Source: Kiritimatiellia bacterium (lineage in GTDB: Bacteria; Verrucomicrobiota; Kiritimatiellia; RFP12; UBA1067). From it: DNA of 64,000 bases. Shown one piece after another: positions 42,559-63,857 of this stretch (positions are counted from its first letter, which is position 1; every line of letters begins with the position of its first letter). The notes below the pieces were generated by a model that worked only from the letters and a program-made list of their open reading frames with translations, did no database searches and had not been told where the DNA came from. The position numbers were made by a program, and so were the translations under genes. The stretch is taken from positions 4,697 to 68,696 of the forward strand of contig JAZRWB010000075.1 in assembly GCA_045599445.1 (NCBI GenBank). Reading direction: 5' to 3'.

Positions 42559-42748
42559 GGAGTCTATAGGTAAATATATATCTGAGCGACGCGAGGCGTT
42601 GAAGGTGTCACAGTATTATTTGGCCAAACTTTCCAATATTTCTGTGCATACGCTATCTAATTTGGAAACTGGTAACGGGAATGTGACTTTGAATACACTG
42701 ATAAAAGTTTGCGAGGTTTTGGGACTAAAAGTGAAAGTTGGAGTATGA
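42551..42748 (+). CDS. hipB: XRE-family helix-turn-helix protein (HipB-like)
   Basis: A 65-aa protein. 'IGKYISERREALKVSQYYLAKLSNISVHTLSNLETGNGNVTLNTLIKVCEVLGL' is a classic Cro/C1 HTH. ATGA overlap with the next gene. Confidence 0.85.
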   Translation: MNKESIGKYISERREALKVSQYYLAKLSNISVHTLSNLETGNGNVTLNTLIKVCEVLGLKVKVGV

Positions 42749-43059
42749 AGGTCGCCAAGGTTCATTATCGGGATATAATCGCGGGATCGCTTGTTCAAGA
42801 TTCCAACGGTTACGTTTTTCGTTATGATCCCAATTATCTTGCGAACTCTTCGCTACCGGACATTTCCGCTACCCTGCCGAAGTCGTCGGCGGAATATCGT
42901 TCGCCATACTTGTTTTCGTTTTTCGCCGGGTTGCTCGCCGAAGGCGTGCAGAAGGAGCGTCAATGTCGAGAGTTGAAGATTGACGAGCATGACGATTTTA
43001 CCCGACTCGTCGAAACCAGTGCTTACGGAGCAATAGGAGCGGTGTATGTTACAGCTTAA
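42745..43059 (+). CDS. hipS: HipA N-terminal-subdomain protein (HipS-like)
   Basis: A 104-aa protein. 'V.YRD..AG.L.....GY.F.YD..YL......P.S..LP' plus 'FSFFAGLLAEG' plus 'GAIGAVYV' parallel E. coli HipA residues 1-105 ('FNFFDNLLPDS', 'DSVGAVTL'). Confidence 0.75.
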   Translation: MKVAKVHYRDIIAGSLVQDSNGYVFRYDPNYLANSSLPDISATLPKSSAEYRSPYLFSFFAGLLAEGVQKERQCRELKIDEHDDFTRLVETSAYGAIGAVYVTA

Positions 43060-43936
43060 TTTTAATTACGGCGATCTTGGATTGCCGGAGTTGAGAGCGA
43101 AAGCCAGTCGCGCATCGATCTCCGGAGTGCAGGAAAAGGTGCAACTCAAGCGGGTGCGTGGAGGATTTGCGGTAGTGGAGACGGGTGGCGACTTTATCTT
43201 GAAGCCGGCGCCACGCAATACGGCGGCGGAGCATTCAGGGGACATACCGCTAAACGAATGGACAACGATGCAAATCGCCAAGCGAATTTTTTCCATCAAT
43301 ACCGCCGAGCACGACTTGGTCGCATTCGCCGATGGTGAACTCGCTTACGTTACCCGACGCTTTGATTATCGCAACGGGGTGAAGATTCGCCAAGAGGATT
43401 TTTGCCAGCTTTCGAATCGTACCGAGGCGAAAGACGGGCCGAATTACAAATACGATGCGAGCTATGAAGAACTCGCCGAATTGATGCGCAAGTACTGCGC
43501 TTCCGCTTTAGTGGACAACCCCAAGGTTTTCAAAATAATTCTTTTTAATTACGTTTTTGCCAATGGAGACGCGCACCTCAAGAATTTTTCGCTGTTGGAT
43601 AGCCCGCAGGGCGACTATATTTTGAGCCCGGCGTACGATTTGCTGAATACCGCCGTCCATTTCCGAAATGAACCGAGCGCCACCGGACTGGATTTCTTCG
43701 CGGACGGACATTTTACCGCGCGCTACGAGGAATTGGGCTTTTACTCATCGGTCGACTTCATCGAACTTGGTAAGTGCTTTTCGGTCGGCGAAGTAGATGT
43801 TCGAGCTATGATTGACGATTTTATCGCCAAGCGTGACGCGGTCTGGGAGTTGATTGGCTCGTCACCACTTTCCGCAGAGGTAAAGCGAATTTATCTAACG
43901 CGCTTCAACGACAGATTGAAGGCAATTTCGTTGTGA
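43046..43936 (+). CDS. hipT: HipA-family Ser/Thr kinase core (HipT-like toxin)
   Basis: 'SISGVQEKV' (cf. SLAGAQEK), 'ILKP', 'NEW..MQIAK', 'YVTRRFDY', 'RQEDFCQL', and catalytic 'NGDAHLKNFSLL' ... 'LSPAYDLLNT'. It overlaps the previous gene by 14 nt. Confidence 0.85.
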   Translation: MLQLNFNYGDLGLPELRAKASRASISGVQEKVQLKRVRGGFAVVETGGDFILKPAPRNTAAEHSGDIPLNEWTTMQIAKRIFSINTAEHDLVAFADGELAYVTRRFDYRNGVKIRQEDFCQLSNRTEAKDGPNYKYDASYEELAELMRKYCASALVDNPKVFKIILFNYVFANGDAHLKNFSLLDSPQGDYILSPAYDLLNTAVHFRNEPSATGLDFFADGHFTARYEELGFYSSVDFIELGKCFSVGEVDVRAMIDDFIAKRDAVWELIGSSPLSAEVKRIYLTRFNDRLKAISL

Positions 43937-45248: not shown

Positions 45249-46018
45249 ACATACTTACACTTAAATGGGGCAAGATGTACGATGCGGGCTATGTGAACCG
45301 CATCTATCGTGGCGTCAAGCGGTCGCTTCACCAGCCGTTTCGCTTTGTTTGCGTAACCGACGATCCAACTGGTCTCGAAGAAGGAATCGACGCGCAGCCG
45401 TTCCCAGAAAAGCCCGACTGGCTGAAGCTTAATTGGCGCTATCCCGCGTGGCCGAATATCTACGTTAAGTTGCTCGTTTTCGAGCAGGGCTTCGCCGCGC
45501 TCGAAGGGCCGACGCTCTTCCTTGATATCGATCAGATTATTACCGGAGATCTCGATCCGTTCTTCGAATATAAAAAAGGCGAGTTCTGCATCATCCGCAA
45601 TTGGGTCGCCTTCAGAAAGCGCATCCTCCGGCCGGTGCCGTTTTGCGGAAATTCCTCGTGCTTCCGGTTTGACGCTGGCGAGAAGAGCGACTATATCTTC
45701 CAAAAGTTCAAAGCGGAGATCGATACCGCGCTCGATCCCGAAGTTTACGGTACCGAGCAGGAATACATGACTCACGCCGTCGGGTTTGAGAAGGTGAATT
45801 TTTGGCCGGATAATTTCGTTCGTTCCTTTAAGCGCGCTTGCACTTGGCCTTGGCCGCTCAATCACTTTTTAGTGCCGAGACTGAAGAAGGATACGCACAT
45901 TCTTTGTTTTCACGGCTTCCCGACGCCGGAGCAGGCGATTGCCGGGTTCAAGGGCTCCAAGCACATCGACGGTTGGACTCGCCCCGCGCCGTGGATAAAG
46001 GAGCTTTGGGATAAGTGA
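45242..46018 (+). CDS. Putative nucleotide-sugar-dependent glycosyltransferase (unclassified)
   Basis: 'ILTLKWGKMYDAGYVNRIYRGV....H.PFRFVCVTDD' and a DxD-like 'FLDIDQIITGDLD'. Trp-rich, real-looking composition. The family is not recognised with certainty. Confidence 0.4.
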   Translation: MVNILTLKWGKMYDAGYVNRIYRGVKRSLHQPFRFVCVTDDPTGLEEGIDAQPFPEKPDWLKLNWRYPAWPNIYVKLLVFEQGFAALEGPTLFLDIDQIITGDLDPFFEYKKGEFCIIRNWVAFRKRILRPVPFCGNSSCFRFDAGEKSDYIFQKFKAEIDTALDPEVYGTEQEYMTHAVGFEKVNFWPDNFVRSFKRACTWPWPLNHFLVPRLKKDTHILCFHGFPTPEQAIAGFKGSKHIDGWTRPAPWIKELWDK

Positions 46019-47757
46019 AGACATTTATGAAGGCACTAAAGCCGATAGTTACCGATACATACGATTTTCCGACGCTTATTCGGGATGGAAATGTTTACGT
46101 TGATAAAACGGCGCTTTTACATCGATTGATCTCAAGAGTTGATGGATCGCTATTTTTTATGTCTCGCCCGCGTCGATTTGGTAAGTCGCTAATGATTTCG
46201 ACCTTGGAGCAAATATTTAAGGGGAACAAGGCGCTTTTCAGAGGCCTTGCGATTGCCAAGACAAATTACGATTGGAAATCTTATCCAGTACTTCGCCTTG
46301 ATATGTCACGCTTCGACAATTCATCGGGGGTTGTTGCATTTCAGAATCAGTTAATTGCGAGCTTGGGAGATGGCTTGACGGCCGCTGAGGCATTGGAGCA
46401 TCGCATCACGGAATTGTCTAAGAAATCATCTTTTGGAAAGATAGTTGTGCTTGTTGATGAATACGATAGCCCAATTTCCGGTTTATTAGATCGCCCAGAA
46501 GAAATGGAGCGGATGCGTGAATTATTGCAGTCATTTTATCGTGTTTTAAAGAGTAATGTAGGGCGACTGCATTTTCTAATGATGACTGGCGTGAGTAAAT
46601 TCACGAAGCTATCGGTTTTTTCAGGGATGAATAATTTAACTGACATTTCAATGTCTGAAAATTATGCATCACTTTTGGGTTATACTCGTGAAGAGATTGA
46701 ATGTGTTTTTAGACCGCACATTAAGGCGTTTGCTGATAAGTTGGATAAAACGCCTACGGATATTATAGAGGATTTGCTTGCGTGGTATGATAGTTATCGT
46801 TTCTCTCCTGAAAATGATGTACATGTCAGTAACCCCGTGTCGATTGGTAGAGCATTGCAAGAGCGACGCTTTTATGGGTTTTGGGATGCTACTGGTAGTG
46901 CCACATTGATTGTTGAGAGATTGCGTAAATTAGGGCGCCTTCCGGATGAGATTGAGGGAATTAAGGTTTTCCCTAAAAAATTAGATATTTGCGATGCTAA
47001 AACTTTGCCATTTGCGGCTTTAATGTATCAAGGCGGGTATTTAACTATTAAAGACGTCGATCCGAGTGGTGAGCTTGTGTTGGGCATCCCAAATCGCGAA
47101 GTACGTTTGGCGATTTACGACGGACTGGTCGATTATTTGTTGAAAGATTCTGCAGACGCGTTTACTTCGATGGCAGTTAGCTTAAAAAAACAGTTGGATG
47201 ATGATGAATCTGGCACACAACTAAGACGGGTTTTACAATCGATATTTGCCATGATTCCACACGAGTGGAAATTGAAGAGCGAAGCCGAGGCAAAACGATA
47301 TTTCTTATTGTTCATGAAGATGGCCGGTGCAACCATCAATGCTGAAATTGAATCGGCGAATGGTCGCGCAGATGCAATCCTTGAAACCGAGAAGTGCGTT
47401 TTCATTTTTGAATTTAAATACGGTAAGTCGGCAAATGTGGCGCTCAAGCAATGTCACGCGCGCAAATACGCTCAGCCATACGCTACTGATAAGCGACGTA
47501 TCGTTTATGTCGGGGTTAACTATGACACCCTAAAGCGGGGGATTGACACCCTAAATGACACCCTAAATGACACCCTAAATGACACCCTAAATTCACGCCT
47601 TTTGGCGTTGATTCGTCGGCGTCCTGGTCTGCGTAGACCGGATCTTATGATGTCTTTGGGAGTTTCCGAAAGCTCGGTGGCACGGAGTCTGCGCGAACAA
47701 AAGGATGAAATTGAATTTAGAGGAGCGCCAAAGACAGGCGGATATTTTATCAAGTGA
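46015..47757 (+). CDS. AAA-ATPase-like protein with PD-(D/E)XK nuclease-like domain (PF09820/PF08011 type) plus C-terminal winged-HTH tail
   Basis: 'DFPTLIRDGNVYVDKTALL', 'FFMSRPRRFGKSL' (P-loop-like), 'VLVDEYD', later 'GRADAILETEKCVFIFEFKYGKS' (PD-ExK core). After a (DTLN)4 repeat comes 'LALIRRRPGLRRPDLMMSLGVSESSVARSLREQ'. The start could be ATG 46027 instead of GTG 46015. Confidence 0.7.
   Translation: MKTFMKALKPIVTDTYDFPTLIRDGNVYVDKTALLHRLISRVDGSLFFMSRPRRFGKSLMISTLEQIFKGNKALFRGLAIAKTNYDWKSYPVLRLDMSRFDNSSGVVAFQNQLIASLGDGLTAAEALEHRITELSKKSSFGKIVVLVDEYDSPISGLLDRPEEMERMRELLQSFYRVLKSNVGRLHFLMMTGVSKFTKLSVFSGMNNLTDISMSENYASLLGYTREEIECVFRPHIKAFADKLDKTPTDIIEDLLAWYDSYRFSPENDVHVSNPVSIGRALQERRFYGFWDATGSATLIVERLRKLGRLPDEIEGIKVFPKKLDICDAKTLPFAALMYQGGYLTIKDVDPSGELVLGIPNREVRLAIYDGLVDYLLKDSADAFTSMAVSLKKQLDDDESGTQLRRVLQSIFAMIPHEWKLKSEAEAKRYFLLFMKMAGATINAEIESANGRADAILETEKCVFIFEFKYGKSANVALKQCHARKYAQPYATDKRRIVYVGVNYDTLKRGIDTLNDTLNDTLNDTLNSRLLALIRRRPGLRRPDLMMSLGVSESSVARSLREQKDEIEFRGAPKTGGYFIK
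47524..47592 (+). repeat. 12-bp in-frame tandem repeat GACACCCTAAAT x4 (+1 degenerate copy)
   Basis: Perfect units at 47545-56, 47557-68, 47569-80 and 47581-92, with a degenerate unit GACACCCTAAAG at 47524-35. They encode (DTLN)n between the nuclease-like core and the wHTH tail. Confidence 0.95.
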
Positions 47758-52065: not shown

Positions 52066-52991
52066 TACCCAAGGTCACTATTGCCACGGCCGCTTATAAT
52101 GTACTTTCAAGTTGTGGCTTGGAGGCGATGGAAGAGAGCGTGCGAAGCGTTGCCGCGTTGCCAGTTGAGCATGAGCATATTATTTATGATGGCGCTTCGA
52201 CGGATGGAACGCTTGAGGCGCTACGCAAGTTGGGGAAAGAGATTTCTACTTTAAGGATAGTATCGGAAAAGGATTCGGGAATTTATGATGCGTTAAATAA
52301 GTGCCTACGTGATGCGCGGGGCGATTATTTTTATGTACTAGGGATGGATGATCGGATTATTGATGGTGAAGCGTTTTGTGAATGTGTGACCAAGGCGCTT
52401 AGGAACAAGGCGGACATGTTGATTGCAAAAGTCGTGATGCAAGATAAGCGTGATGTTCGCCCGGCGACCATGTTTGGAAGCTATCGCCACGCACGGATGC
52501 ACAGCTACAGTCATCAAGGAGTGATGGTGAGGACGGCTTTGCTGAAGGAATATCCTTTTGATCAGAGTTATCGCATTACGGCGGACTATAAGCAACTGCT
52601 TACCCTTAATTGGAATGGGGTAAGAGTTCGTATGCTTAATAAGAAGATCGCATATTGTTCTCAAGCCGGTGTATCGTCTATGGTAACTGAAAGGTGCGCT
52701 GAAGAGACCATTAGGGTGCAAAAAGAAGTATATTCATTAACCGATATAGAGATAAAGAAGTTTTTGGATAGTGGATTTTTGCCATTCAGGGTAGTTGCGC
52801 ATCTTTTGTTTGTCGGCGGTGTTTTTTCGCTTTTCATGGGATTGTCCATATTGGGTTCCTATATTTGGCGTAAGCATAAGACGAATTTGCATAGTAAATA
52901 TTATTTATTTAATTTGTTGATTTATCAACATTTGAAGAAGTCAGCTCGTGCTGATAAAACGAAAGGGAAACTGTGTCAAAATATTGGTTAG
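52062..52991 (+). CDS. Family 2 glycosyltransferase with C-terminal TM segment
   Basis: 'VTIATAAYNV', 'IIYDGASTDGT', 'LGMDDRI', and a hydrophobic tail 'VVAHLLFVGGVFSLFMGLSILG'. ATG 52062 is in an ATGA overlap. Confidence 0.7.
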   Translation: MIPKVTIATAAYNVLSSCGLEAMEESVRSVAALPVEHEHIIYDGASTDGTLEALRKLGKEISTLRIVSEKDSGIYDALNKCLRDARGDYFYVLGMDDRIIDGEAFCECVTKALRNKADMLIAKVVMQDKRDVRPATMFGSYRHARMHSYSHQGVMVRTALLKEYPFDQSYRITADYKQLLTLNWNGVRVRMLNKKIAYCSQAGVSSMVTERCAEETIRVQKEVYSLTDIEIKKFLDSGFLPFRVVAHLLFVGGVFSLFMGLSILGSYIWRKHKTNLHSKYYLFNLLIYQHLKKSARADKTKGKLCQNIG

Positions 52992-53977
52992 TATCATTTG
53001 CTGATTCTCGGATGCAAGGCGCATTAAATCGGCTAAGAGCTCAAGCCGATGGGGTTAATATATTTGGAGATAGGATTTGCTTATTTACTGAGAACGATTT
53101 AGACCCACAATTTAAAAAACAAATGGCCAATCGCCTTATTCTTGGTTCGCGTGGGTATGGTTATTGGTGCTGGCGTCCACAAATTATACTGCAGATGTTT
53201 GAGAAGATGGACGATGGCGACGTTTTATTATTTGTAGATGCTGGGTGTCACATTAGAAAGGAAGGAGCTACTCGTATACGTCAGTATCTTGAGTTTGCAG
53301 CGAAATATGGGATTTTAGCATTTTCGTATAAGCCATTGGATGAAACGGAGGCAAAGGATATATCAACGCATTTTTTTGTTGAAGGTGAATGGTGTAAAGG
53401 AGATGTCTTAGATTATTTTGGTGTACGAAATCGTGAGGATATAGTTCAAAGTGGGCAAACTTGCGGTGGTGTTTTTTGCGCGAAAAAAGATGTTTCGGTT
53501 ATTGATTTTTTTAAGCGAATTAAAAACATTGCGGTCAATCATTATAATCTTATCGACGATAGTCCATCTATTTCTGCTAATTTGCCTATATTCAAAGCAC
53601 ATAGGAATGATCAATCAATCTTCTCTATTATGGTGAAATTGGCTGGATACCCAACTATTTCTGCAGGAGAAACTGATCGTATAGGAATATGTGCCAATCG
53701 AGAAGGGAATGATTGGCCGAAGACATGGGATGATGTGATTAACTTGCCAGTTAACCCTGGAATACTGGCAAAAAGAGATCTTGGTGTTTATAAGTTATTT
53801 TTTAGGAAGAAGGTTCGCCTTTTTAAAACAATAATATTTTTTAAGTTTAAATTATATGGCGAGAGAGGATGGAAGTGTGATGAAAAACAGTTGCTTTCGG
53901 TATGGTGTAGCCCGATTGTACATTTTCGTAGGCGCAATACTTTATATGTTTTTGGTAAAGAAATTGAGACAAGATAG
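52973..53977 (+). CDS. Hypothetical protein, possibly a glycosyltransferase
   Basis: 'YWLVSFADSR', 'GYGYWCWRPQIIL', 'LLFVDAGC' is reminiscent of small nucleotide-sugar transferases, but I cannot name the family. The sequence is AT-rich and the start is GTG. Confidence 0.35.
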   Translation: MSKYWLVSFADSRMQGALNRLRAQADGVNIFGDRICLFTENDLDPQFKKQMANRLILGSRGYGYWCWRPQIILQMFEKMDDGDVLLFVDAGCHIRKEGATRIRQYLEFAAKYGILAFSYKPLDETEAKDISTHFFVEGEWCKGDVLDYFGVRNREDIVQSGQTCGGVFCAKKDVSVIDFFKRIKNIAVNHYNLIDDSPSISANLPIFKAHRNDQSIFSIMVKLAGYPTISAGETDRIGICANREGNDWPKTWDDVINLPVNPGILAKRDLGVYKLFFRKKVRLFKTIIFFKFKLYGERGWKCDEKQLLSVWCSPIVHFRRRNTLYVFGKEIETR

Positions 53978-53987
53978 GAAGTATAAT

Positions 53988-54641
53988 ATGAACGTATTTG
54001 AAAAAATTAGAGATGGTGATAAGCGTATAGTGAAGATGTTTGGATTCACCATAATGTCTTACACTCATCGCGAATCGAGCGTTCCGATTTTTATGTCACG
54101 TTCAAATAATGAATTAATTAATATTCCTCGTGGATGTAGAATTGAGATATTTGGAGAGCGCAATCGTGTTGTTTTTAGAGGAAAGGGTGGCGGTACTTTT
54201 TCGGGAACAATTTATATTGGGGATTCAAATTGTTCAACTAATGATTGTTTTGTTGAGATTGGTGATGGCACTGCGGCAAACGGGTGCATAATACGCCTAA
54301 TGGAAGATAATACTAAGCTTGTCATGGGCAATGATTGCATGCTATCGGATAATATACATATATGGGCTTCTGATACTCATACCATTACTGATGCAAGTGG
54401 AAAAATAATTAATTGGGGGAAGTTTGTTGAGATAGGAAGCCATGTATGGATTGGGACTGGTGTTACAATACTCAAAAACACTAAAATCCCATCCGGAACA
54501 ATAGTTGGCGCGCATAGTGTTGTGTCCGGATGTAAAATAAAGGAAGAAAATTGTATTATTGCCGGCAGCCCAGCTAAAGTCGTCAAGACTAATGTAACAT
54601 GGCATCGCGAGCGTCCAAAGCAATATTTACGCGAAGGATAA
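53988..54641 (+). CDS. Hexapeptide-repeat (left-handed beta-helix) acetyltransferase
   Basis: 'VMGNDCMLSDNIHIWASDTHTI', 'VEIGSHVWIGTGVTILKNTKIPSGTIVGAHSVVSG'. I preferred ATG 53988 to the track start 53856, which would overlap the previous gene. Confidence 0.75.
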   Translation: MNVFEKIRDGDKRIVKMFGFTIMSYTHRESSVPIFMSRSNNELINIPRGCRIEIFGERNRVVFRGKGGGTFSGTIYIGDSNCSTNDCFVEIGDGTAANGCIIRLMEDNTKLVMGNDCMLSDNIHIWASDTHTITDASGKIINWGKFVEIGSHVWIGTGVTILKNTKIPSGTIVGAHSVVSGCKIKEENCIIAGSPAKVVKTNVTWHRERPKQYLREG

Positions 54642-54662
54642 ATTAAATGGAGAAATATAGAT

Positions 54663-55694
54663 ATGGAAATTTCAGTCATAATGCCAGTATACAAGGTGGA
54701 GAAATATCTTCGCCAAGCAATTGATTCGGTTTTAGCGCAAACCTTTAAGGATTTTGAGCTAATTATTGTTGATGATGGCTCTCCTGATGGTTGCCCAGCA
54801 ATTTGCGATGAATATGCCAAAAAGGACTCAAGGATTAAAGTTATCCATAAAGAAAATGGAGGATCATCTTCAGCACGTAATGCAGGACTTGATATTGCTA
54901 AGGGTAAGTGGATTGCGTTTATTGATAGTGATGATCAGTATAGGCCCGAGATGCTTATGAAGATGTGGACATTGGGTGGGCAAGATGATGAAATCGATTA
55001 TGTGCATTGTAGTATCGAAATGGTATCTAATGGTTTTCCTATAACAAAAGAAGATATAGAGTACAATACTCAACCATTTGATGACATTCGTTCATTAACA
55101 AACGAGATAATTTTATCATCCGATTGCTCTACATGTAATAAATTGTTTCGCGCAGATATAGTTAATTCATTTAAATTGCGTTTTCCTGAAGGTTTGCGAT
55201 TTGAGGACTTTTTCTTTTATAATGCATTTACAATAATTGCTCGCAAAGTTGGATTTATATCTGATAGGCTGTATGTGTACAGGCGACGCCCGAATGCAAA
55301 TGTGACGCAGATGATGGGCAATGATGTTAATGTTTCGCATATATTTGATCCTATTATCATATGGCGCACATTGGTGGATTTCTTGAAAAGGTGTGAAAGA
55401 TTGCAAGGACAGCAACATGTGGTGTTTCAATTACTTATGCAGTGTATTAGTATTTCAAATCTTGATGTTCCAAAAGCAGTAGGAATTTGTGCAGCAAAAG
55501 GGTTGCTTTCGTATGCTAATCTTAATCCGCGAGATTTTACATTTGGTGAAAAAGCTAATCTGTTTTGGTGGCGTCATGGTAAGCCAGGTGGTGGATCCAT
55601 TAAATATCTTGGCGGATTAATTAAATTACAATTGAGAGAGCGAAAGATTAATGTACGGCTTTTTGGCATCAGAATTTTTACAGTTAATATTTGA
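54663..55694 (+). CDS. Family 2 glycosyltransferase
   Basis: 'ISVIMPVYKVEKYLRQAIDSVLAQTFKDFELIIVDDGSPDG', 'RNAGL', 'FIDSDDQ'. Confidence 0.88.
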   Translation: MEISVIMPVYKVEKYLRQAIDSVLAQTFKDFELIIVDDGSPDGCPAICDEYAKKDSRIKVIHKENGGSSSARNAGLDIAKGKWIAFIDSDDQYRPEMLMKMWTLGGQDDEIDYVHCSIEMVSNGFPITKEDIEYNTQPFDDIRSLTNEIILSSDCSTCNKLFRADIVNSFKLRFPEGLRFEDFFFYNAFTIIARKVGFISDRLYVYRRRPNANVTQMMGNDVNVSHIFDPIIIWRTLVDFLKRCERLQGQQHVVFQLLMQCISISNLDVPKAVGICAAKGLLSYANLNPRDFTFGEKANLFWWRHGKPGGGSIKYLGGLIKLQLRERKINVRLFGIRIFTVNI

Positions 55695-55699
55695 TTAAG

Positions 55700-57481
55700 A
55701 TGAAGTATATGAAAACTTTTTTCTGGATTTCTATCTCGGCGTTAGCTTACATATTGCTTACGGTGCTAGTTTGGTATCCGTTGATGATTTTTTCATTGGA
55801 ATGTGATTTATTTGATACATCGGTTAATGCAATTTTTTGGAGTGGAATACTTTATGCCGCATTGGTAATTGGTATATTTACTCTTTGTTGGTGGTTTTTA
55901 TTGCGTAACCGTGCATCGGTTTGGATTGCATCATTTCTTTGCTTTTGCGGTATTATTGTGTATTTTTATCTTTTTATCTGCCCTGTAAATACTGGTACTT
56001 TGCAAGGCGCTGAATTAATGAATGCTGATGCAATTAGTCGTAGTGTACTGGAGAAAATCGTTGAGATAGCATTACTGGCTGGATTGTTTTGTATTTGTAG
56101 ATTGTTAATAAATAGATTTAGCTTTTGGTGTTTTGTTGCCGCTTTTTCTGTACTTAATTTGTTAGCTGCGATTCAAGCAATAGCTGCGATTGCCAATCAA
56201 CATAGATGCGATGATTGCGAGACAGTATCTGTTAATGATGTTGATTTAACAAAAGAAGGAATTAAACTATCTACGGTACATAACAATGTGTTTGTGTTTT
56301 TATTAGATATGGTCCAAGGCGCGTCATTTAGAAATATATTTGACGACAAAAGTATTGCTTCAGAATTGGATGGTTTTGTTTGGTATTCTAACTGTGCATC
56401 AGTTGCAAACATGACAATACCATCAACATTATCAATTTATGGTGGATATAAATATTCTCCAGGAGAAATTGGACGTCTACCTGGCTCTATAGATGACAAA
56501 TGTGCGCAAGCAATGGGTGAACTGGTGAATGACACTTCATCACTTGGATATGATTTTTCGTATTATTATCGCCGAGCTAATTTGGAATTTAAGAATAAAT
56601 GGATGACATCGTCACCGCTGTTCTCGCAAGAGTTATTGTCTAGGCTATTAGATCAAGAGATATGTACAATAGGGAAATTAAAACTTGATATTTTGCGCTG
56701 TTTTTCTTTGTTTCGCGCAGCTCCACTATTGCTCAAAAAATGGATATATCATCGTGGGTTTTGGAGGTTTTGTGATGAGCCAGATGGATGTGTTTCTTTT
56801 GGACAGGAGCATTCATTTTGTAGAGCGTTACCAATACTTTCCGTGGCACATAGTGGGGGGCGAGGTAATGTCAATTTTTTCCATACGGATATTACCCATA
56901 ACCCATGGGGTGTCCCAGAAAATGGACATTTAGAAAAATGTGATAATGTTAAGATATTATCTTGGACTATGCGACAACTGTGTGCATATTTTAAGTGGAT
57001 GAAGGCAAATGGAGTTTATGATAATACGCGAATTATTATTTGTTCAGATCATGGACTATGTAATATGAAGAATGATGATTTTAATCCTGATACCGATCCT
57101 ATGTTGCATCGAGAGCTTTGGGAACAATTAATAAGTGGGGTAAAAGATAGTAGTTGGCTGGAGGAGCAGAGGATTCAGTCACTTAATGCACTTTTATGTG
57201 TGAAAGATTTTGGTGTAAGATCGTCAATTCGTGAATCTAAAAAATTAATAAGTAATGGTGATATTAGAGAACTGGTGACATGTGACAATGTACAATCATC
57301 GGTTGGTAATATGCCATCGACGCGTAGGGCATATATTTGCGAGCCTCCAAAAGATGGTTCTTGGTTTCATGGTGAACAAAATCACAATCTTAATGCTTTA
57401 GTTGGGTTTGAGATTAGAGATAACATTTATGATTTGAGGAATTGGGTGCGCATTCCAACCTTGGATAGCATAGGAAAGTAA
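55700..57481 (+). CDS. Membrane protein of the alkaline-phosphatase/sulfatase superfamily (second, AT-rich paralogue type)
   Basis: About 5 N-terminal TM helices, then 'NVFVFLLDMVQG' and 'IIICSDHG'. The architecture matches 39888..41492. I preferred ATG 55700 to TTG 55691. Confidence 0.5.
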   Translation: MKYMKTFFWISISALAYILLTVLVWYPLMIFSLECDLFDTSVNAIFWSGILYAALVIGIFTLCWWFLLRNRASVWIASFLCFCGIIVYFYLFICPVNTGTLQGAELMNADAISRSVLEKIVEIALLAGLFCICRLLINRFSFWCFVAAFSVLNLLAAIQAIAAIANQHRCDDCETVSVNDVDLTKEGIKLSTVHNNVFVFLLDMVQGASFRNIFDDKSIASELDGFVWYSNCASVANMTIPSTLSIYGGYKYSPGEIGRLPGSIDDKCAQAMGELVNDTSSLGYDFSYYYRRANLEFKNKWMTSSPLFSQELLSRLLDQEICTIGKLKLDILRCFSLFRAAPLLLKKWIYHRGFWRFCDEPDGCVSFGQEHSFCRALPILSVAHSGGRGNVNFFHTDITHNPWGVPENGHLEKCDNVKILSWTMRQLCAYFKWMKANGVYDNTRIIICSDHGLCNMKNDDFNPDTDPMLHRELWEQLISGVKDSSWLEEQRIQSLNALLCVKDFGVRSSIRESKKLISNGDIRELVTCDNVQSSVGNMPSTRRAYICEPPKDGSWFHGEQNHNLNALVGFEIRDNIYDLRNWVRIPTLDSIGK

Positions 57482-57490
57482 GATGTTAAA

Positions 57491-57595
57491 ATGATTAAGG
57501 TTTATACATACTTTTGTACTTCGTCAATTCACAAGGGCCATCTCAATATTATCAACGAAGCTTGCAAACTCGGTGAGCGTCGATTGAAAAAGTAA
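57491..57595 (+). pseudogene. 34-codon remnant of a cytidylyltransferase (HxGH nucleotidyltransferase N-terminus only)
   Basis: MIKVYTYFCTSSIHKGHLNIINEACKLGERRLKK*. 'IHKGHLNIINEA.KLGE' matches the H-x-G-H block of TagD/phosphonate-pathway cytidylyltransferases ('LIHPGHLNIIKEA.KLGE'). No continuation is found in any frame. Confidence 0.5.
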
Positions 57596-57829
57596 ACGAA
57601 AGTTTATGGTATTGAACAGGCCTCGGCGGCGTTTTGCGTTGTCGAGGTTTTGTTTACTTTTGCAAAGATGGCGAAATTCGTAGAAATTATCAGAGTCGAA
57701 GATGAAGTCGAAGTCGAACAAAGGAGGGTAGAATTCCTCTGTTCACCCTCAACTTCAACTATCTCTTCAAGCGAAAGTCGTATCTACGACTTGGAAGTTG
57801 CGTAGGCCCAGGGTATTTACAAATTGCGC

Positions 57830-57859
57830 TTGCCGTTGATGAGAATAGTGTGGTATAAT
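57830..57859 (+). promoter_or_regulatory. Promoter of the non-coding transcript
   Basis: TTGCCG (57830-35), an 18-nt spacer, then TGgTATAAT (57851-59). It matches the extended -10 consensus that recurs upstream of operons in this window. Confidence 0.6.
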
Positions 57860-57865
57860 AGACAT

Positions 57866-58262
57866 ACATTGATCTTTGACATCGGCGGGTGGCAGTTGCG
57901 CCCGCTATCGGGCTGAAGCGAGAAATCGTCGAGGCCAGAACCTCAAAATCGGAGTCCACAACGAGCCGAGGAGAGGAGTTGGGAACTCCCAAAAGGATCT
58001 TGACAGCGTACGCAGCTTGCGTACTGAGCTTTATCTGAAAACCGCTAATTTCCAGAGAACTAAAGCGAGGTATGTGAGTGCGTCACGTGGCAAGTTCCAT
58101 GTGGCGTGCTTTCTGATCGTGTTTTAGTTCGGGCTCTTAGCGGTGCCTCTTGTAAGACAAGATTCGGAGGGTGCGCCACACTATTTCCACGCAAAAGAAA
58201 CGCGAGAGAACAAGCGGCACATTCAACCTGAGCGACAGATGTGAATGTGCCGCTCTTCTTTT
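57866..58262 (+). ncRNA. Candidate ~400-nt structured non-coding RNA (family unknown), or long structured leader
   Basis: Bounded by the promoter above and an intrinsic terminator, with no credible ORF. G+C is about 52% by hand count against roughly one-third in the flanks. It has multiple hairpins, including a 13-bp stem (58078-58109) with four G.U pairs that are only possible on the + strand. Confidence 0.5.
58213..58262 (+). terminator. Rho-independent terminator
   Basis: 13-bp perfect stem AGCGGCACATTCA / TGAATGTGCCGCT (58213-25 / 58242-54), a 16-nt loop, then CTTCTTTT. Confidence 0.8.
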
Positions 58263-58319
58263 ACCCGGGCGGGGAGGGTGGTGCAAGGTATGGGGCGCGG
58301 GAAAAGAAAGGGAGCTTAA

Positions 58320-58694
58320 ATGAATGCTGAAGAAATAATGAAAATTCTATATTCAACTTCGAAGGAAGATTGGATTGTGTCCCCTGATACAGATTCATAC
58401 ACTTACAGAGCAGATGTTTTATTGAGGATACAAAAACATCCTGTTGATTATTCCATTACGTTTGAGGGTGAGGATTGGGCTGTGGATCATAATGACCCTA
58501 ATGCATACAAGGTCATTTACGGTGTTTACTATGGGGATTCCTTTATAATAGAGAAAACCCTTGTTGCCGTTGATGGTTGTCGCGCAATTTTACCCATGCC
58601 CCGAAAGGGTACGACTGAAATCTCACTCGAAGACTACAAGTTCGCGAAGATCGTTGCTCCTAATTCGTTGGATGAATACATAGCTCGTTCGTGA
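58320..58694 (+). CDS. Hypothetical 124-aa protein
   Basis: GGGAG RBS 6-10 nt upstream. Soluble, acidic/aromatic composition (MNAEEIMKILYSTSKEDWIV...). No motif recognised. Confidence 0.55.
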   Translation: MNAEEIMKILYSTSKEDWIVSPDTDSYTYRADVLLRIQKHPVDYSITFEGEDWAVDHNDPNAYKVIYGVYYGDSFIIEKTLVAVDGCRAILPMPRKGTTEISLEDYKFAKIVAPNSLDEYIARS

Positions 58695-58764
58695 TTAAAT
58701 GTAGCTGAGGCTAATTGATAGCTATTGCCTTTACGCGATGAATTACATTAGTAAGGAGAACGAT

Positions 58765-59676
58765 ATGATTAAAGATAAAAATACCCTTGACAAGTGGTTT
58801 GCGAATAATTATCAAGGTTATGGCGAGGTTGAGAATCTTTATCATTATACGTCTATTGAGGCATTGGAAAGTCTGACGCGAGGAGAGGGCGATCTTCGAC
58901 TCACACATTACAAATTCTTAAACGATAGAAGCGAGTTCGACATTGGAAGGCAAACTATAATTGAAATTCTTCAAAGCCTAAATCTTGAGCATAAAGAAAA
59001 GTATCTTCAAGAAATTCAAGGGAATGACCTTGATACGCAATTCCTTCAGAAGCAGTATCAGATGCCTTGGATCGCGTCGTTCTCTGCCGAACGTGATTCT
59101 TTATATCAATGGATTGCATACACGCCTCGTGACAAGGGCGGTATCGCATTGTCACTGAATACCCGAGAATTGTTGCAGAAGGTGCAAACAGCAAATGCTT
59201 CTTATGGAAGGTTTGATTGTGACACGGGATTAGTGCCTTGCATTTATCTTGTGCCGTGTTTCTATAAAAATAAAGACACGGACCGATTAAGTGAGTTTGT
59301 CGATTTTCTATTCGGAACGTATTTGCCCGATGTTCAATCACGATGCAAAAAGGAAGAGGGGCGTAGGACTGCTTTCTATGAGGTTGTGATGATCGGTTCG
59401 TCGCTGATTAAGCATGATGCATTCCGCTTTGAAAGGGAATGGAGGATTGTGTTTCTTCCGAATCAAGAGGAGCAGATGAAGGTCGTTATGCCGTATGGGA
59501 ATAAGTTAGCATCTGGACTTTGGGATGCCCAACACCCCTTTGGGCAGGATGTAAAAGAGGTTATGCTTTCGCCACATGGGAACCTCGAGGCTCTTTCAAA
59601 GAAGGTAAACTGGATAAAGGAAATGCGGTCGTTGCCGTTTAAGCTGTCGCCAAGTGACATACCGTATGTAGGTTGA
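58765..59676 (+). CDS. DUF2971-family protein
   Basis: 'NLYHYTSIEALESL.......LRLTHYKFLNDRSEF' matches the DUF2971 N-terminal signature (YHYTS...L...NDP.E). ATG 58765 has AAGGAG 6 nt upstream; the track start is 58738. Confidence 0.65.
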   Translation: MIKDKNTLDKWFANNYQGYGEVENLYHYTSIEALESLTRGEGDLRLTHYKFLNDRSEFDIGRQTIIEILQSLNLEHKEKYLQEIQGNDLDTQFLQKQYQMPWIASFSAERDSLYQWIAYTPRDKGGIALSLNTRELLQKVQTANASYGRFDCDTGLVPCIYLVPCFYKNKDTDRLSEFVDFLFGTYLPDVQSRCKKEEGRRTAFYEVVMIGSSLIKHDAFRFEREWRIVFLPNQEEQMKVVMPYGNKLASGLWDAQHPFGQDVKEVMLSPHGNLEALSKKVNWIKEMRSLPFKLSPSDIPYVG

Positions 59677-59742: not shown

Positions 59743-61914
59743 ATGAAAAAGATGATTGGTGCGCTGTGCTGTGTATTGCTGTCATTGTCTCTATTTTCCG
59801 ACATCAAAGTTTCGGATGTGAAGGTATTTTCGGGTTATCCGTGGCATGAGGTGGCTATCGGATACACGATTACCGGCACTGCGGATGAAACCTTTGGATT
59901 GCAGATTTCCGCTACGGATAATGTGAGTGGTAATAGTTACGAATGTAAAACGCTTGATGGTGTGAGTTTGACAGAAGGTAACCATATTGTAAAGTGGAAT
60001 GCTTCTGCGGATGGAGCAAAGTTTAAATCAAGTAGTGTGGTTTTTACTGTTAAAGTCGGAAAACTCCAATATTGTGTAGTCGACCTTTCGGGCGGAACGA
60101 TGGCTACAAGCTACCCTGTAACGGAACTGATAGACGTTCCGTGCGGCGGTTGGACAGATGAGTACAAGACGACAAAGCTCGTATTACGGCGCATAGAGGC
60201 GGGATCGTTTATCATGGGAGACGACCAGGCGAACGAAGTGCATCGTGTGACACTAACATGCCCGTTCTATATGGGTGTCTTTGAAGTGACACAAAAACAG
60301 TGGTCTCTTGTGATGGGGACGGTTCCTTGGTCGAGTACTAGATACGGAAAGGGCGAAGATTATCCAGCGCATTACATTTCGTATGATATGATTCGAGGTA
60401 ATGTAAAGGGTGCCCTTTGGCCGATTTCGTCGGAGGTAGATCTAGACAGTTTTATGGGAAAACTTCAATTGAAGACTGGGCTCGTTTTCGATTTACCGAC
60501 TGCGGCTCAATGGGAGTATGCCTGTCGTGCGGGATCAACAACGACCTACTATTGGGGTAATGTTATACATGGCGATTTTGCGTGGTATTCTTCCAATTCA
60601 AATGGTAAGGCACATCCTGTCGGAACAAAGACACCAAATGCCTGGGGACTTTATGATATGAGTGGTAACATGTGGGAAAGATGTAGGGATTGGGCTGGAT
60701 CGTTGGTGTATGGAATGGATCCTCAAGGTGTGTACTTTGACGTTGGACGAGAGGATCGTGGTGGTTCGTTTGACAATTCGGAAGGGAGTCTTGTGTCATC
60801 CTTGCGTCACAGTCAAAGTCCGGAAGTCCCGGACGATGACTTTGGATTTCGCGTTTCTAGAACTCTTGTTGCTAATTGTTCAGTCGTATTTAACGCTACC
60901 GGTGGAGCGGTGGGAATGGCATCACGAGTAATCAATTGTGGTACACCTCTCGGTGTACTTGAGACCCCCGTACGAGAAGGGTTCGAGTTTTTGGGTTGGT
61001 ACACGGCTGAAACGGGCGGGACTCGTTTCGACGAGTCAGCGATTGTGCGTGGCGATTTGACGCTTTATGCGCGATGGGTGCCGATAGATGAAACTGAACT
61101 GTATTGTGTCGTTGATCTTTCGGGGGGGACAAGCGTGACTAACTATTCAGTATCGTATATGAACGCTGTTCCTGAGGGAGGTTGGACGGATGAGTATAAG
61201 ACAACAAAACTCGTATTGCGCCGTTTGAATGCGGGCACGTATGTCATGGGGAATGATCAAATGGATGAGACGCATCGAGTGACGCTCACGAAATCGTTCT
61301 ATGTGGGTGTCTTCGAAGTGACGCAGAAACAATGGTCTCTTGTGATGGGGACGAATCCCTGTGCCAACACTTCTTACGGGAAAGGGGATGATTATCCTGT
61401 TCATTATGTCTCATATAATATGATTCGTGGCAGTTTGGAGGGGGCTCAATGGCCGACATCATCGACCGTTGATACGATGAGCTTTGTCGGTCAATTGAGA
61501 ACGAAGACAGGACTTGATTTTGATCTGCCGACTGAAATACAGTGGGAATATGCGTGTCGTGCGCATTCTGTGACCGGATATTATTGGGGTAATTCTATGA
61601 ATGATGATTACGCATGGTATGATTCAAATTCTGGTGGCAAAACACATCCGGTTGGAAGGAAACGACCGAATGCTTGGGGGCTGTACGACATGTGTGGCAA
61701 TGTGTGCGAATGGAATCTTGACTGGTATGACTCGACCCTGCCGTACGGTACAGAACCAAGGGGGCCTTCTTCTTCGGGGGTGGGGCGGGTGTTTCATGGT
61801 GGTGGCTGGTTTGCTAATGCGAACAGCTGCACGTCATCCTATCGGGGCGGTTGTCCTCCGGTGGGTGCCAACAATGACAGCGGTTTTCGCCTAGTCAGAA
61901 CTCTGTCCAAGTAA
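59743..61914 (+). CDS. Secreted protein with Ig-like N-domain and two FGE-sulfatase (SUMF1/C-type-lectin-fold) domains separated by a Listeria-Bacteroides repeat
   Basis: Signal peptide MKKMIGALCCVLLSLSLFS. Two copies of 'GGWTDEYKTTKLVLRR...G.FEVTQKQWSLVMGT...YP.HY.SY.MIRG...WEYACRA......YYWGN....DYAWY..NS.GK.HPVG.K.PNAWGLYDM.GN..E'. Between them lies 'FNATGG...REGFEFLGWYT...G.RFDE' (Flg_new-type repeat). Confidence 0.75.
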   Translation: MKKMIGALCCVLLSLSLFSDIKVSDVKVFSGYPWHEVAIGYTITGTADETFGLQISATDNVSGNSYECKTLDGVSLTEGNHIVKWNASADGAKFKSSSVVFTVKVGKLQYCVVDLSGGTMATSYPVTELIDVPCGGWTDEYKTTKLVLRRIEAGSFIMGDDQANEVHRVTLTCPFYMGVFEVTQKQWSLVMGTVPWSSTRYGKGEDYPAHYISYDMIRGNVKGALWPISSEVDLDSFMGKLQLKTGLVFDLPTAAQWEYACRAGSTTTYYWGNVIHGDFAWYSSNSNGKAHPVGTKTPNAWGLYDMSGNMWERCRDWAGSLVYGMDPQGVYFDVGREDRGGSFDNSEGSLVSSLRHSQSPEVPDDDFGFRVSRTLVANCSVVFNATGGAVGMASRVINCGTPLGVLETPVREGFEFLGWYTAETGGTRFDESAIVRGDLTLYARWVPIDETELYCVVDLSGGTSVTNYSVSYMNAVPEGGWTDEYKTTKLVLRRLNAGTYVMGNDQMDETHRVTLTKSFYVGVFEVTQKQWSLVMGTNPCANTSYGKGDDYPVHYVSYNMIRGSLEGAQWPTSSTVDTMSFVGQLRTKTGLDFDLPTEIQWEYACRAHSVTGYYWGNSMNDDYAWYDSNSGGKTHPVGRKRPNAWGLYDMCGNVCEWNLDWYDSTLPYGTEPRGPSSSGVGRVFHGGGWFANANSCTSSYRGGCPPVGANNDSGFRLVRTLSK

Positions 61915-62005: not shown

Positions 62006-62143
62006 ATGAAAATGAAGAAAATTGTGTTGCTGGCTGCTCTGACGTTTTCAGTTATGTATTCTGCTGGGGCCGAGGTCTATGCTGAGGCGAGCTCGGTTGC
62101 AGTAACTGTTGACACGATGTCTGTCGAGGGGGGGGGATGTTGA
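62006..62143 (+). other. Orphan signal-peptide leader ORF (45 codons), out of frame with the downstream large ORF
   Basis: MKMKKIVLLAALTFSVMYSAGAEVYAEASS... ends at a TGA 5 nt after the G9 tract. It fuses in frame to ORF 62109..63857 if the tract is G8. Confidence 0.75.
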
Positions 62144-63857
62144 GGCGCCTGTTTCGATCGCCTACGGGAGCGTAGGCCCTTTTGATTGTACACTTTCCTT
62201 AGATGGCGTTGAATTGATGTCGTCTACGGAAAATGGAATCTATCGGTGGTGCCCGAATTCACTTGGAGAACATACGCTCGTGTGGTCTTCCGGGAATATG
62301 GCGATGACGACGACGGTGAATGTCGTGTCGCTGGTGATGCCTACTCCGGAAATTACGCCTGTGGACGGTACGGTGATTGGCGATTCACAATCAGTCATGA
62401 TTTCAAGTGTTGTGAATGATGCGCAAATCTACTACACAATAGATGGCAGTGAGCCGACGAGTTCGTCGGCGGCCTATCAGAAGCGCTTCCGCGTGTCGGG
62501 TAAGACGACCGTCAAGGCGATTGCAATGCGTGAGGGGTGGACCGATAGCGTGGTCGCAGTTGCCCATTACGCGCTCGGGCAGTGCCCTGATCCAGTGATC
62601 GTTTCGGCGGGCGGGGAGACTTTCCTGCACAATGGCAATCAGGTTTCGATTGACTGGAATTGCGCGGATGGCGTTCTGCGGTATACGACGGACGGCAGCG
62701 ATGTGACGGAGACGAGTCCGGCGTATGCGGGTGCGTTTACGATTGACGACACGACCGTGATCAAGGCGAAGGCGTTTGGTGAAACGTACTTCGACAGCGT
62801 GCAGGTAGAATTGACGGTGACGCGCGAGTGGGAACCGGTTGCGATGCCGGTGATCGCCGCGCCGGAAACGTTCAGCGGCGGCAAGACAACGGTGACAATC
62901 TCGTGTACGACCGAGGGGGCGCTCATTCGCTATACGACGGATGGTAGCGAACCCAACTCGCATTCGCGCCGCTATTCGGGTCCGTTCGAGGTGAGCGAGA
63001 CTATGGTTGTGAAGGCGTTTGCGAGTTTGGCAGACTACACCAATTCTGCAATCGCCACGAAATTGATCACGAAGGTGTGGGCGATTGGCGATTCCGTGGG
63101 GTTGCCCGACCACTCGTTTACGACGGAGGGTGGCGCCGGCTGGGTCGACGAGGGCGGAGTCGCGATGAGGTCCGGCGCGATTGCGGACGAACAGGTGTCG
63201 ACCCTGAAGTCGACCTTCGTCGGCAAGGGACGCCTGACATTCGACCTCAAGACCTCGTGCGAAGAGGACGATCCGGTCTTCATGGAATACGACCATGCCG
63301 AGATATGGATCGACGGCGTTCGCAAGGTGAAGCGCGACGGCGTGCACGACTGGTCGACGTTTGTCTACGATCTTGGCGAGGGACCGCATGTTGTCGAATG
63401 GAAGTATGTGAAGGACGACCTCGACGAGGTCCGATACCCGGGCGAAGATTGCATTTGGGTGAGGAATGTCGTCTGGCTCCCCGAATCTACCTGTACGACG
63501 GAAGTACCGGTTCCGCTTTCCTGGATTAGGGAGAAGTTCGGCGATCTCGGTACCTACTACTACGATTACGAGGAGAAGGCCAACGGGGTTGCCGCGAACG
63601 GGCATAGGGTCTGGGAATGCTACGTCGCCGGCGAAGACCCGACGGACGCCACTTCGAAGCTTACGGCGCTCATTGAAATGTCCAATGGCGTGCCGTTGGT
63701 TTCCTGGACGCCGGATTTGAATGAAGGTGCGGGTAAGGTCGGTACGAGAATCTACACCATCATGGGCTCGAACGATTTGAAGAATTGGTCGGCCGTTCCC
63801 GATGGACAGGAAGTGAACTTCAAGTTCTTCAAGGTCGTGGTGGAAATACCGCGTTGA
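62109..63857 (+). CDS. Large surface/secreted protein with three chitobiase/hexosaminidase-C-like (Fn3-associated) repeats; currently frameshifted from its signal peptide
   Basis: Three repeats of the type 'I.YT.DGSEP...S..Y.G.F.V...T.VKA.A......S.....'. The ~250-aa C-terminal domain ends 'NWSAV......FFKVVVE'. The TTG start in the track is probably artefactual; see the G9 tract. Confidence 0.65.
   Translation: MTRCLSRGGDVEAPVSIAYGSVGPFDCTLSLDGVELMSSTENGIYRWCPNSLGEHTLVWSSGNMAMTTTVNVVSLVMPTPEITPVDGTVIGDSQSVMISSVVNDAQIYYTIDGSEPTSSSAAYQKRFRVSGKTTVKAIAMREGWTDSVVAVAHYALGQCPDPVIVSAGGETFLHNGNQVSIDWNCADGVLRYTTDGSDVTETSPAYAGAFTIDDTTVIKAKAFGETYFDSVQVELTVTREWEPVAMPVIAAPETFSGGKTTVTISCTTEGALIRYTTDGSEPNSHSRRYSGPFEVSETMVVKAFASLADYTNSAIATKLITKVWAIGDSVGLPDHSFTTEGGAGWVDEGGVAMRSGAIADEQVSTLKSTFVGKGRLTFDLKTSCEEDDPVFMEYDHAEIWIDGVRKVKRDGVHDWSTFVYDLGEGPHVVEWKYVKDDLDEVRYPGEDCIWVRNVVWLPESTCTTEVPVPLSWIREKFGDLGTYYYDYEEKANGVAANGHRVWECYVAGEDPTDATSKLTALIEMSNGVPLVSWTPDLNEGAGKVGTRIYTIMGSNDLKNWSAVPDGQEVNFKFFKVVVEIPR
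62128..62136 (+). repeat. Homopolymeric G9 tract (putative slipped-strand phase-variation site)
   Basis: Counted directly: nine consecutive G at 62128-62136, lying between the signal-peptide frame and the body frame. Confidence 0.95.

Follow-up and report, generated by a model that had tools for sequence, protein, structure and literature searches.

The DUF2971 family has entered the literature on phage defence with Aristaios, a 316-aa DUF2971 protein of lactococcal plasmids which on its own confers phage protection on lactococci and whose structural model is ADP-ribosyltransferase-like (PMC11381338). Within the ADP-ribosyltransferases, the family has been placed in the H-Y-E clade and is similar to DarT and AbiGi (PMC12522546). 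In Swarozyc, the phage portal is bound by the auxiliary domain, which activates the NADase (PMC13174449), and in Evangelion an auxiliary region is needed for defence. The known controls silencing such toxic anti-phage effectors are mostly proteins, and this silencing is only partly understood. Here, a locus is described in which a DUF2971 gene is located behind a structured leader RNA and a small gene encoding a 124-aa protein, the latter designated ORF124 (ORF, open reading frame). It is found in a 64,000-nucleotide (nt) stretch of contig JAZRWB010000075.1 from a Kiritimatiellia bacterium (assembly GCA_045599445.1), in the following referred to as the window. All coordinates are positions in this window on the + strand, and the region analysed spans 57.4-59.8 kb. 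Related loci are numbered L001 and onwards.

The locus is best explained as two separable units, that is, a leader RNA, presumably an attenuator, together with ORF124, and a DUF2971 gene added later, instead of one inserted module; we rate the chances of this explanation as about even. In Kiritimatiellae-like bacteria, the RNA and ORF124 have been conserved as a pair across at least four lineages. The RNA is real, conserved and structured, its structure has covariation support, and it represents a previously undescribed family tied to ORF124 in one clade. According to the proposed mechanism, the TG-extended promoter would fire constitutively and the leader RNA would function as a transcription attenuator, in which the choice between hairpin and terminator sets the amount of transcript reaching ORF124 and beyond; this RNA switch could respond to a metabolite, to an infection-induced change or to the ORF124 protein itself. 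ORF124 would act as a trigger-sensing or adaptor domain; in other proteins, this domain is found where an auxiliary domain follows the NADase effector. The DUF2971 gene would have been added downstream in this genome, is probably carried on the leader's transcript and may or may not cooperate with ORF124. Among these elements, the RNA with its putative attenuator mechanism is the most interesting one.

The RNA extends from about position 57866 to 58192, and an extra terminator reaches 58262. For the sequence 57864-58266, a fold of -160.9 kcal/mol was calculated (z = -5.8), with 0 of 100 shuffled sequences being as stable. The structured RNA and the terminator of the original prediction are real, the latter as a perfect 13-bp hairpin followed by CTCTTCTTTT, with its stem-loop portion at 58213-58254 in an inverted-repeat scan. 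The G+C content of the RNA stretch is 0.51 versus about 0.38-0.42 in its flanks, and G-U pairs, promoter and U tracts are all consistent with the + strand. Searching the window with Rfam 15 at gathering score returned tRNA-Met as the sole match, while at E values up to 10 no meaningful match was obtained within 57400-58800. Rfam searches of eight related loci did not give any match to the RNA either, and it was not recognized by ARAGORN run on the window.

By sequence, L001 is the only locus alignable with the window RNA. The local alignment of the 5' domain reaches a score of 78 versus 19.2 ± 2.2 in shuffles, its gaps of 1, 2 and 3 bases speak against conservation of a reading frame, and the pairwise consensus fold of the 5' domain contains compensatory pairs. 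A similarity of this domain to the group C loci L008 and L012, suggested by a MAFFT alignment, was rejected as being at chance level in the shuffle test. In the window, L001, L002 and L006, a TGnTATAAT element precedes ORF124 or its homologue by 360-470 nt, and it is present there in 0 of 15 other loci. The conserved core of the RNA is a long hairpin whose helices S1 to S3 keep pairing despite changed sequence when the lineages are read side by side (Table 1), with 7 of the 8 pairs of S2 being compensatory. A conserved loop, CGGGCTC, occupies 58130-58136, and a GCC follows directly after the 3' strand of S2.

A covariance model built from three group B sequences only detected L033, a new lineage, with 40.9 bits (E 5.5e-8) as well as L001 (E 0.014) and had 58037-58149 as top match in the window (11.8 bits, E 1.1), all three matches lying directly 5' of an ORF124 homologue. 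In an alignment of four lineages that was fitted to this covariance model, 91.6% of the cells are paired versus 73.0 ± 2.6% in shuffled and 36-48% in slid controls, and 24 pairs are altered on both sides versus 9.4 in shuffled and at most 6 in slid controls; the observed values are reached by 0 of 500 shuffles. When running the model with filters off on 13 other ORF124 loci, no match was found at the expected place (L009 scores 7.8 bits at 5830-5958), and a separate descriptor search of other ORF124 loci likewise revealed no such RNA. Upstream of RNA-less ORF124 loci, an XRE-type regulator gene (L022, L025), a short promoter region (L024) or, elsewhere, other sequence is found. Scanning viral contigs for the pattern GGGCTCTNNNNGGNGCCTC yielded 71 matches that behave as chance, and a strict descriptor gave 21 S2-type pairings, 0 of them with full context.

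Immediately past the hairpin, every lineage has 11-13 nt able to pair with the 3' half of the apical region. An alternative helix of 11-13 bp is located at the same place in six of six folded sequences, albeit with differing sequence (Table 1), and it is followed by a U-rich tail in five of them (L001, L002, L005, L006 and L033). By constrained folding, the two states are 4-22 kcal/mol apart; the window prefers the alternative helix, the other five sequences the hairpin. By established pseudoknot geometry, the long hairpin and the alternative helix should exclude each other, as the latter crosses S1-S3 with almost no linker. Two exclusive conserved helices, one with a U tract, located between promoter and gene are the predicted anatomy of a terminator/antiterminator leader. 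Position, exclusive helices, single U tract and covariation are thus shared with attenuators and riboswitch leaders. Unlike T-box and ribosomal-protein leaders, the RNA is without an Rfam match and is large, with a lineage-variable 5' domain. Unlike in known attenuators, no ligand, tRNA-binding or leader-peptide feature was recognized in the RNA, and its window copy carries an additional downstream terminator.

Promoter, structured RNA, terminator, G-rich spacer, ORF124 and DUF2971 gene are all found at the places where the original prediction had put them, but its view of a self-contained, inserted three-part unit does not agree with the related loci. RNA and ORF124 do occur together in four lineages, whereas blastp of all ORFs revealed a DUF2971 gene beside an ORF124 homologue in 0 of about 22 other loci. 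In L026, harboring the closest ORF124 relative (69% identity), no DUF2971 gene is present and ORF124 is directly followed by an FGE-sulfatase gene that is 42% identical to the window gene at 59743-61914, which in the window follows DUF2971. As this order of ORF124 and FGE-sulfatase is common to both loci, ORF124 belongs with the right flank and not with an insert. Also common to L026 is the 3' part of the 13-bp terminator. Conversely, in L030 (1-1107) a DUF2971 gene with 81% identity lies without ORF124 directly behind the same G-rich spacer that precedes ORF124 in the window and L026. Hence, ORF124 and DUF2971 can each use the same leader, and each occurs alone. Other DUF2971 homologues with about 52% identity (L027, L029) are preceded by unrelated upstream genes. 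In the intergenic DNA around DUF2971, no insertion scars were alignable versus L026 or L030. The left flank is different in every relative, consisting of glycan genes in the window, a GH127 gene plus repeats in L001 and genes for HipB and HipA in L002. Together with the unlinked DUF2971 gene, these left flanks argue against a three-part insert and favour a resident RNA-ORF124 locus with variable DNA at its borders. Besides, behind its DUF2971 gene L030 has a fragment similar to the C-terminus of the protein encoded at 62109-63857 in the window. L030 is therefore devoid of the FGE-sulfatase gene and of the greater part of the gene after it, and the region looks like a rearrangement hot spot.

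For ORF124, seven homologues with 47-69% identity were found, and homologues are present in about 22 distinct loci, all from the Planctomycetes-Verrucomicrobia-Chlamydiae (PVC) superphylum, with records labelled Kiritimatiellae, Lentisphaerae, Victivallales, Planctomycetes and Phycisphaeraceae. Exact-protein look-ups returned no entry for either ORF124 or the DUF2971 protein. No family was assigned to ORF124 by Pfam, NCBIfam and PHROG, while a weak but consistent match was obtained to positions about 175-285 of the PADLOC candidate PDC-S50 (E 6e-4). Its AlphaFold model (predicted local distance difference test, pLDDT, 86) comprises a helix, a beta sheet and two helices, with no fold match below E 0.08 among PDB and viral models, and comparing the ORF124 profile with PDB sequences gave noise only (Cap12 at E 0.48). 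A profile search of 1.84 billion representatives, however, resulted in 734 clusters with an ORF124-type domain, many of them free-standing proteins of about 130 aa and many others bearing it as the C-terminus of larger proteins. Fusion partners are TIR_2/SEFIR, DUF4062, SIR2_2 and an nSTAND3-type NTPase; in one fusion, the domain is N-terminal to a protein kinase (Pkinase). The fusion proteins match bSEFIR (E about 1e-70), Avs4, PD-T4-6/PDC-S65 and the SIR2 profiles LmuA and ThsA. In protein P0057, the N-terminal 176 residues match KpSwz (10wc_A) with an E value of 1e-26 and the ORF124-type domain is C-terminal. Accordingly, this domain takes the C-terminal position in proteins matching bSEFIR, in P0057 and in TIR_2 and SIR2_2 proteins, its nearest known counterparts being the auxiliary (sensor) domains of single-protein NADase defences (bacterial SEFIR, Swarozyc and Evangelion with DUF4062, TIR and SIR2 fusions). 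Unlike bSEFIR, Swarozyc and TIR NADases, ORF124 itself lacks SEFIR, DUF4062, TIR or any Pfam domain, and its profile does not match the auxiliary domain of KpSwz.

The neighbourhood of free-standing ORF124 relatives is similarly rich in genes of effector type. In L022 and L025, an FRG/PDC-S15 gene overlaps the stop codon of the homologue, and in L024 such a gene starts 7 nt after it; genes for TIR-like (L010), PD-(D/E)XK-like (L009) and GmrSD (L012) proteins are located directly downstream, and in L014 an ADP-ribosylglycohydrolase gene follows after 5 nt. Because of these domain fusions and neighbours, we infer a sensor or adaptor role, ORF124 being a putative free-standing trigger-sensing or adaptor domain of defence systems. 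An unnamed domain of about 130 residues thus recurs in the sensor position of TIR, SEFIR, DUF4062, SIR2 and STAND defence proteins and also stands free beside swappable effectors, making it a candidate for studies of trigger recognition. The FRG genes mentioned (L022 1680-2564, L024 5397-6245, L025 2552-3454) match PADLOC PDC-S15 with E values of about 1e-48, and the cassette of XRE-type regulator, ORF124 homologue and FRG gene in L022 and L025 looks like an undescribed three-gene defence system.

The DUF2971 protein matches Pfam PF11185 with 29 bits (cut-off 22, E 2.8e-6), phrog_1762 (E 4e-13) and the PADLOC candidate PDC-S31 (E 2.6e-5). In an alignment of 17 homologues, Y26, H27, Y28, T29, S30 and Y119 are invariant and E223, E225 and R227 are present in at least 90%, and the modified H-Y-E motifs including ExE (E223-x-E225), as described in PMC12522546, are kept in the window protein. 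In its structural model (pLDDT 87), the top fold match in the PDB is DarT (7omv), which is weak (E 0.03, probability 0.80, template modelling scores of 0.33/0.44), with Tpt1 ranking fourth. With a length close to that of Aristaios (303 versus 316 aa), a PF11185 score above cut-off and the H-Y-E-type residues kept, the gene is assignable through its PF11185 domain to the Aristaios family, and the protein may be a DarT-like ADP-ribosyltransferase that aborts infection. The statement in the original prediction that neither protein has a known function is therefore outdated; DUF2971 is no longer an orphan family and should be annotated accordingly, and the ORF124 domain occurs in defence proteins. 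By contrast, the suspected relation of the locus to defence was borne out, with an Aristaios domain in one protein and, for the other, a domain shared with proteins matching defence profiles and homologues encoded near FRG, TIR-like, GmrSD and nuclease-like genes. Unlike Aristaios, the window gene has a structured leader and a further small gene in front of it, and unlike in DarTG, neither a macrodomain nor another DarG-like antitoxin is encoded at the locus.

Several points weigh against the favoured explanation of an attenuator-controlled ORF124 with a later-added DUF2971 gene. The covariance score of the window itself is non-significant (E 1.1), the pair counts come from the fitted four-lineage alignment described above, and the full RNA is known from about five distinct sequences in four lineages. 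Since the RNA is absent from most ORF124 loci, its role is not needed by the ORF124 family generally. The alternative helix of the window is followed by a poor U tract and then by a second, strong terminator (58213-58262). For ORF124, having no fold match, the sensor role rests on domain position and neighbourhood. Moreover, ORF124 ends 8 codons early compared to the family (C-terminal comparison, 58692-58718). The codons past its TGA read LNVAEAN before the next stop and match the tail RSGLTV kept by all homologues, so that the last approximately eight codons have probably been lost through a nonsense change, and ORF124, with this tail seemingly lost in the window, may be decaying. Finally, co-transcription of RNA, ORF124 and DUF2971 is deduced from spacing and strand only.

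Because of the poor U tract and the strong terminator behind it, a discrete stable transcript is kept as a rival explanation. Here, the RNA would act as a stable small RNA in its own right and not as a cis-acting leader, would end at its terminator and might form an RNA-protein complex with ORF124, which would be expressed separately. We regard this as somewhat unlikely. The RNA does have its own strong promoter and a clean 13-bp terminator in the window, its 230-400 nt include a hairpin core with the invariant loop motifs GGGCUC and GCC resembling protein-binding sites, and it is linked to ORF124 in four lineages. However, a promoter scan revealed no promoter-like site between terminator and ORF124, the conserved alternative helix plus U tract are best explained by a switch, and most ORF124 relatives are without such an RNA.

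Going beyond the attenuator explanation, the leader could represent a novel regulatory RNA class responding to a cue linked to infection, upon which it would flip from terminator to readthrough and turn on an abortive-infection ADP-ribosyltransferase; the cue could be a metabolite, for instance a signal derived from nicotinamide adenine dinucleotide (NAD) or a nucleotide signal, a phage factor or trigger-loaded ORF124. In this strong form, the proposal is unlikely. If true, it would mean an RNA-gated anti-phage system in the PVC superphylum, and a two-state leader RNA with covariation support, preceding genes for a sensor-like protein and an ADP-ribosyltransferase, would offer a testable case of immunity gated at the RNA level in a poorly studied phylum.

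A third possibility, which we consider distinctly improbable, is that ORF124 and DUF2971 form a toxin-antitoxin or sensor-effector pair, with the RNA being merely a promoter-proximal leader; just as improbably, ORF124 would then neutralize or license the ADP-ribosyltransferase. Both genes are on the same strand, separated by a gap of 70 nt that is terminator-free in the terminator scan, and the location of ORF124 relatives directly upstream of effector-type genes, as in the FRG overlaps and the ADP-ribosylglycohydrolase gene 5 nt downstream, would fit such a pair. This is countered by the distribution of the genes, as DUF2971 never adjoins an ORF124 homologue elsewhere, L030 keeps DUF2971 alone and L026 ORF124 alone, and unrelated genes precede the DUF2971 homologues of L027 and L029. 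Furthermore, Aristaios acts as a single gene (PMC11381338).

Very improbable is a mobile three-part RNA-guided or RNA-antitoxin module that was inserted and replaced the body of a cytidylyltransferase gene: although a truncated ORF bearing an HxGH block lies directly to the left, all parts are on one strand behind their own promoter and, judging from L030, both genes can use the leader, the trio is found nowhere else, ORF124 and FGE-sulfatase share their order with L026, the atypically low G+C content is that of the glycan gene run, ToxI-like tandem repeats as well as a reverse transcriptase, Cas or nuclease partner in the ORF list are missing, and the cytidylyltransferase match is sub-threshold, so that this reading is already largely refuted by synteny data.

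With ToxIN/AbiF-like systems and retrons, the locus shares a separately promoted and terminated non-coding RNA directly upstream of defence-type genes, from which an RNA-guided or RNA-antitoxin layout had been proposed. Tandem Repeats Finder, however, detected only a 6-nt x 4 repeat outside the RNA (57694-57718), and a repeat scan showed no direct-repeat families within it. Unlike in type III toxin-antitoxin systems, there are neither antitoxin tandem repeats nor a recognized endoribonuclease-type toxin, and unlike in retrons, no reverse transcriptase gene is among the ORFs at 55.7-64 kb. In contrast to all these systems, the RNA is absent from most loci of the ORF124 family. Without tandem repeats and an adjacent reverse transcriptase or nuclease, and with the RNA missing from most ORF124 loci, the proposed layout was not upheld.

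The supposed cytidylyltransferase remnant is a 34-codon ORF, which is indeed present at 57491-57595 with IHKGHLNIINEACKLGE and then a stop. Its match to Pfam CTP_transf_like (E 0.021, 15.5 bits, with an HKGH motif) remains under the 21-bit cut-off, the best-scoring cytidylyltransferase among solved structures is 5x3d at E 0.16, and ankyrin repeats match the GHLxIIxxxxxLG block of the ORF at least as well; its identity as a cytidylyltransferase is therefore weak. As stated originally, no other frame continues the fragment. In the same frame, though, a tblastn search with a TagD sequence in a tiny search space showed weak similarity past the stop to about 57720, with FVEIIRVEDEV aligned to ILETIRYVDEV, but this TagD-like extension did not gain support when the read-through translation was searched against solved structures. 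The ORF, located where the low-GC glycan run ends, is possibly what remains of a cytidylyltransferase gene, and the replacement of a gene body by the module, resting on this sub-threshold match, is not indicated by anything else. The truncated ORF is part of the variable, low-GC stretch of glycan genes to the left, with no proof of gene-body replacement; a 596-aa protein is encoded just before it, at 55691-57481. The glycan genes at 52.7-57.6 kb have a G+C content of 0.33-0.41, compared to 0.5-0.6 right of 60 kb, and this atypically low value suggests that the glycan block (52700-57600), and not the RNA/ORF124 locus, has been recently acquired.

The features of the locus and the conserved helices of the RNA are compiled in Table 1. 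The ORFs at 55.7-64 kb encode a membrane phosphotransferase-like protein, ORF124, the DUF2971 protein, an FGE-sulfatase/Flg_new protein (59743-61914) and a CHB_HEX_C protein.

Table 1. Features of the RNA/ORF124/DUF2971 locus in the window and helix sequences (5' strand / 3' strand) of the leader RNA in the window and related loci.
Feature	Locus	Position	Strand	Sequence	Basis
34-codon ORF, HxGH-like block; outside RNA/ORF124 unit	window	57491..57595	+	IHKGHLNIINEACKLGE	ORF list
Terminator-like hairpin ending glycan gene run	window	57618..57650	+	15 pairs, then TGTTTACTTT	terminator scan
RNA promoter, TG-extended	window	57830..57859	+	TTGCCG-18 nt-TATAAT	10/12 matches
Leader RNA 5' domain, several hairpins	window	57866..58036	+		conservation with L001 only
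Leader RNA conserved core, long hairpin	window	58037..58149	+		covariance model and pair counts
Core helix S1	L001			CGTGAGA / TCTCACG	
Core helix S1	L005, L006			GCGTCACGTGA / TCACGTGATGC	
Core helix S1	L002			GCGTCGGATGG / TCATCCGATGC	
Core helix S2	window, L001	58041-58048 with 58137-58144 (window)		ACCGCTAA / TTAGCGGT	
Core helix S2	L002, L005, L006			GCCTGAGA / TCTCAGGC	
Core helix S2	L033			CGTGATAA / TTATCACG	
Core helix S3	window	58058-58064 with 58123-58129		AACTAAA / TTTAGTT	
Core helix S3	L001			ATACAGGA / TCCTGTAT	
Core helix S3	L002, L006			CCGGAAAGA / TCTTTCCGG	
Alternative helix	window	58103-58115 with 58165-58177	+	GGCGTGCTTTCTG / CGGAGGGTGCGCC	constrained folding, six sequences
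Alternative helix	L001			GGCGCATTCTC / GAGGGTGCGCC	
Alternative helix	group B			CCTCCTTCGGTG / CACCGGAGGAGG	
Alternative helix	L033			CCTCTCTTTGTAT / ATACAAAGGGAGG	
Intrinsic terminator, 13-bp perfect stem, 16-nt loop	window	58213..58262	+	stem-loop, then CTCTTCTTTT	inverted repeat, fold
G-rich spacer and ORF124 ribosome-binding site	window	58263..58319	+	GGGAG	sequence
ORF124	window	58320..58694	+		homologues, domain family
DUF2971 protein, 303 aa; ribosome-binding site at 58753-58758	window	58765..59676	+	AAGGAG	Pfam PF11185

Further observations concern the surroundings of the locus. The repeat at 57694-57718, a fourfold tandem AGTCGA, is positioned between the terminator of the glycan run and the RNA promoter. 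Within the glycan run of the window, a trio of HipB/HipS/HipT-like proteins is encoded at 42551-43936, and in L002 genes for HipB and a full-length HipA (3946-5417) lie directly left of the RNA. The HipBST proteins of the window and the HipBA proteins of L002 are 29-42% identical, and 13.5 kb of glycan genes separate the window trio from the RNA; with this low identity and distance, a shared synteny of the two is doubtful. Also amid the glycan genes, a 580-aa protein with AAA-ATPase_like and PDDEXK_9 domains is encoded at 46015-47757, which is probably the orphan ATPase/nuclease of the original prediction.

Among the related loci, L007 (CAVJWR010000012.1) is labelled Limosilactobacillus gorillae, yet it harbors an RNA/ORF124 locus of PVC type at a G+C content of 0.58, and the contig is probably mis-binned. 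In group D (L017 4800-4880, L019 2133-2213), a conserved hairpin of 16 bp, GGCTGCGTTTYCGGTG / CACCGGAAACGCAGCC, whose loop measures about 40 nt and whose sequence is unrelated to the window RNA, is located about 120-200 nt upstream of the ORF124 homologues. Downstream of the ORF124 homologue in L031, at 557-1964, two genes for peptides of about 53 aa (..LDYxRMDNE..MEEASVLSAGAW..) are accompanied by a radical SAM/SPASM gene, representing a cluster resembling those for ribosomally synthesized and post-translationally modified peptides (RiPP-like).

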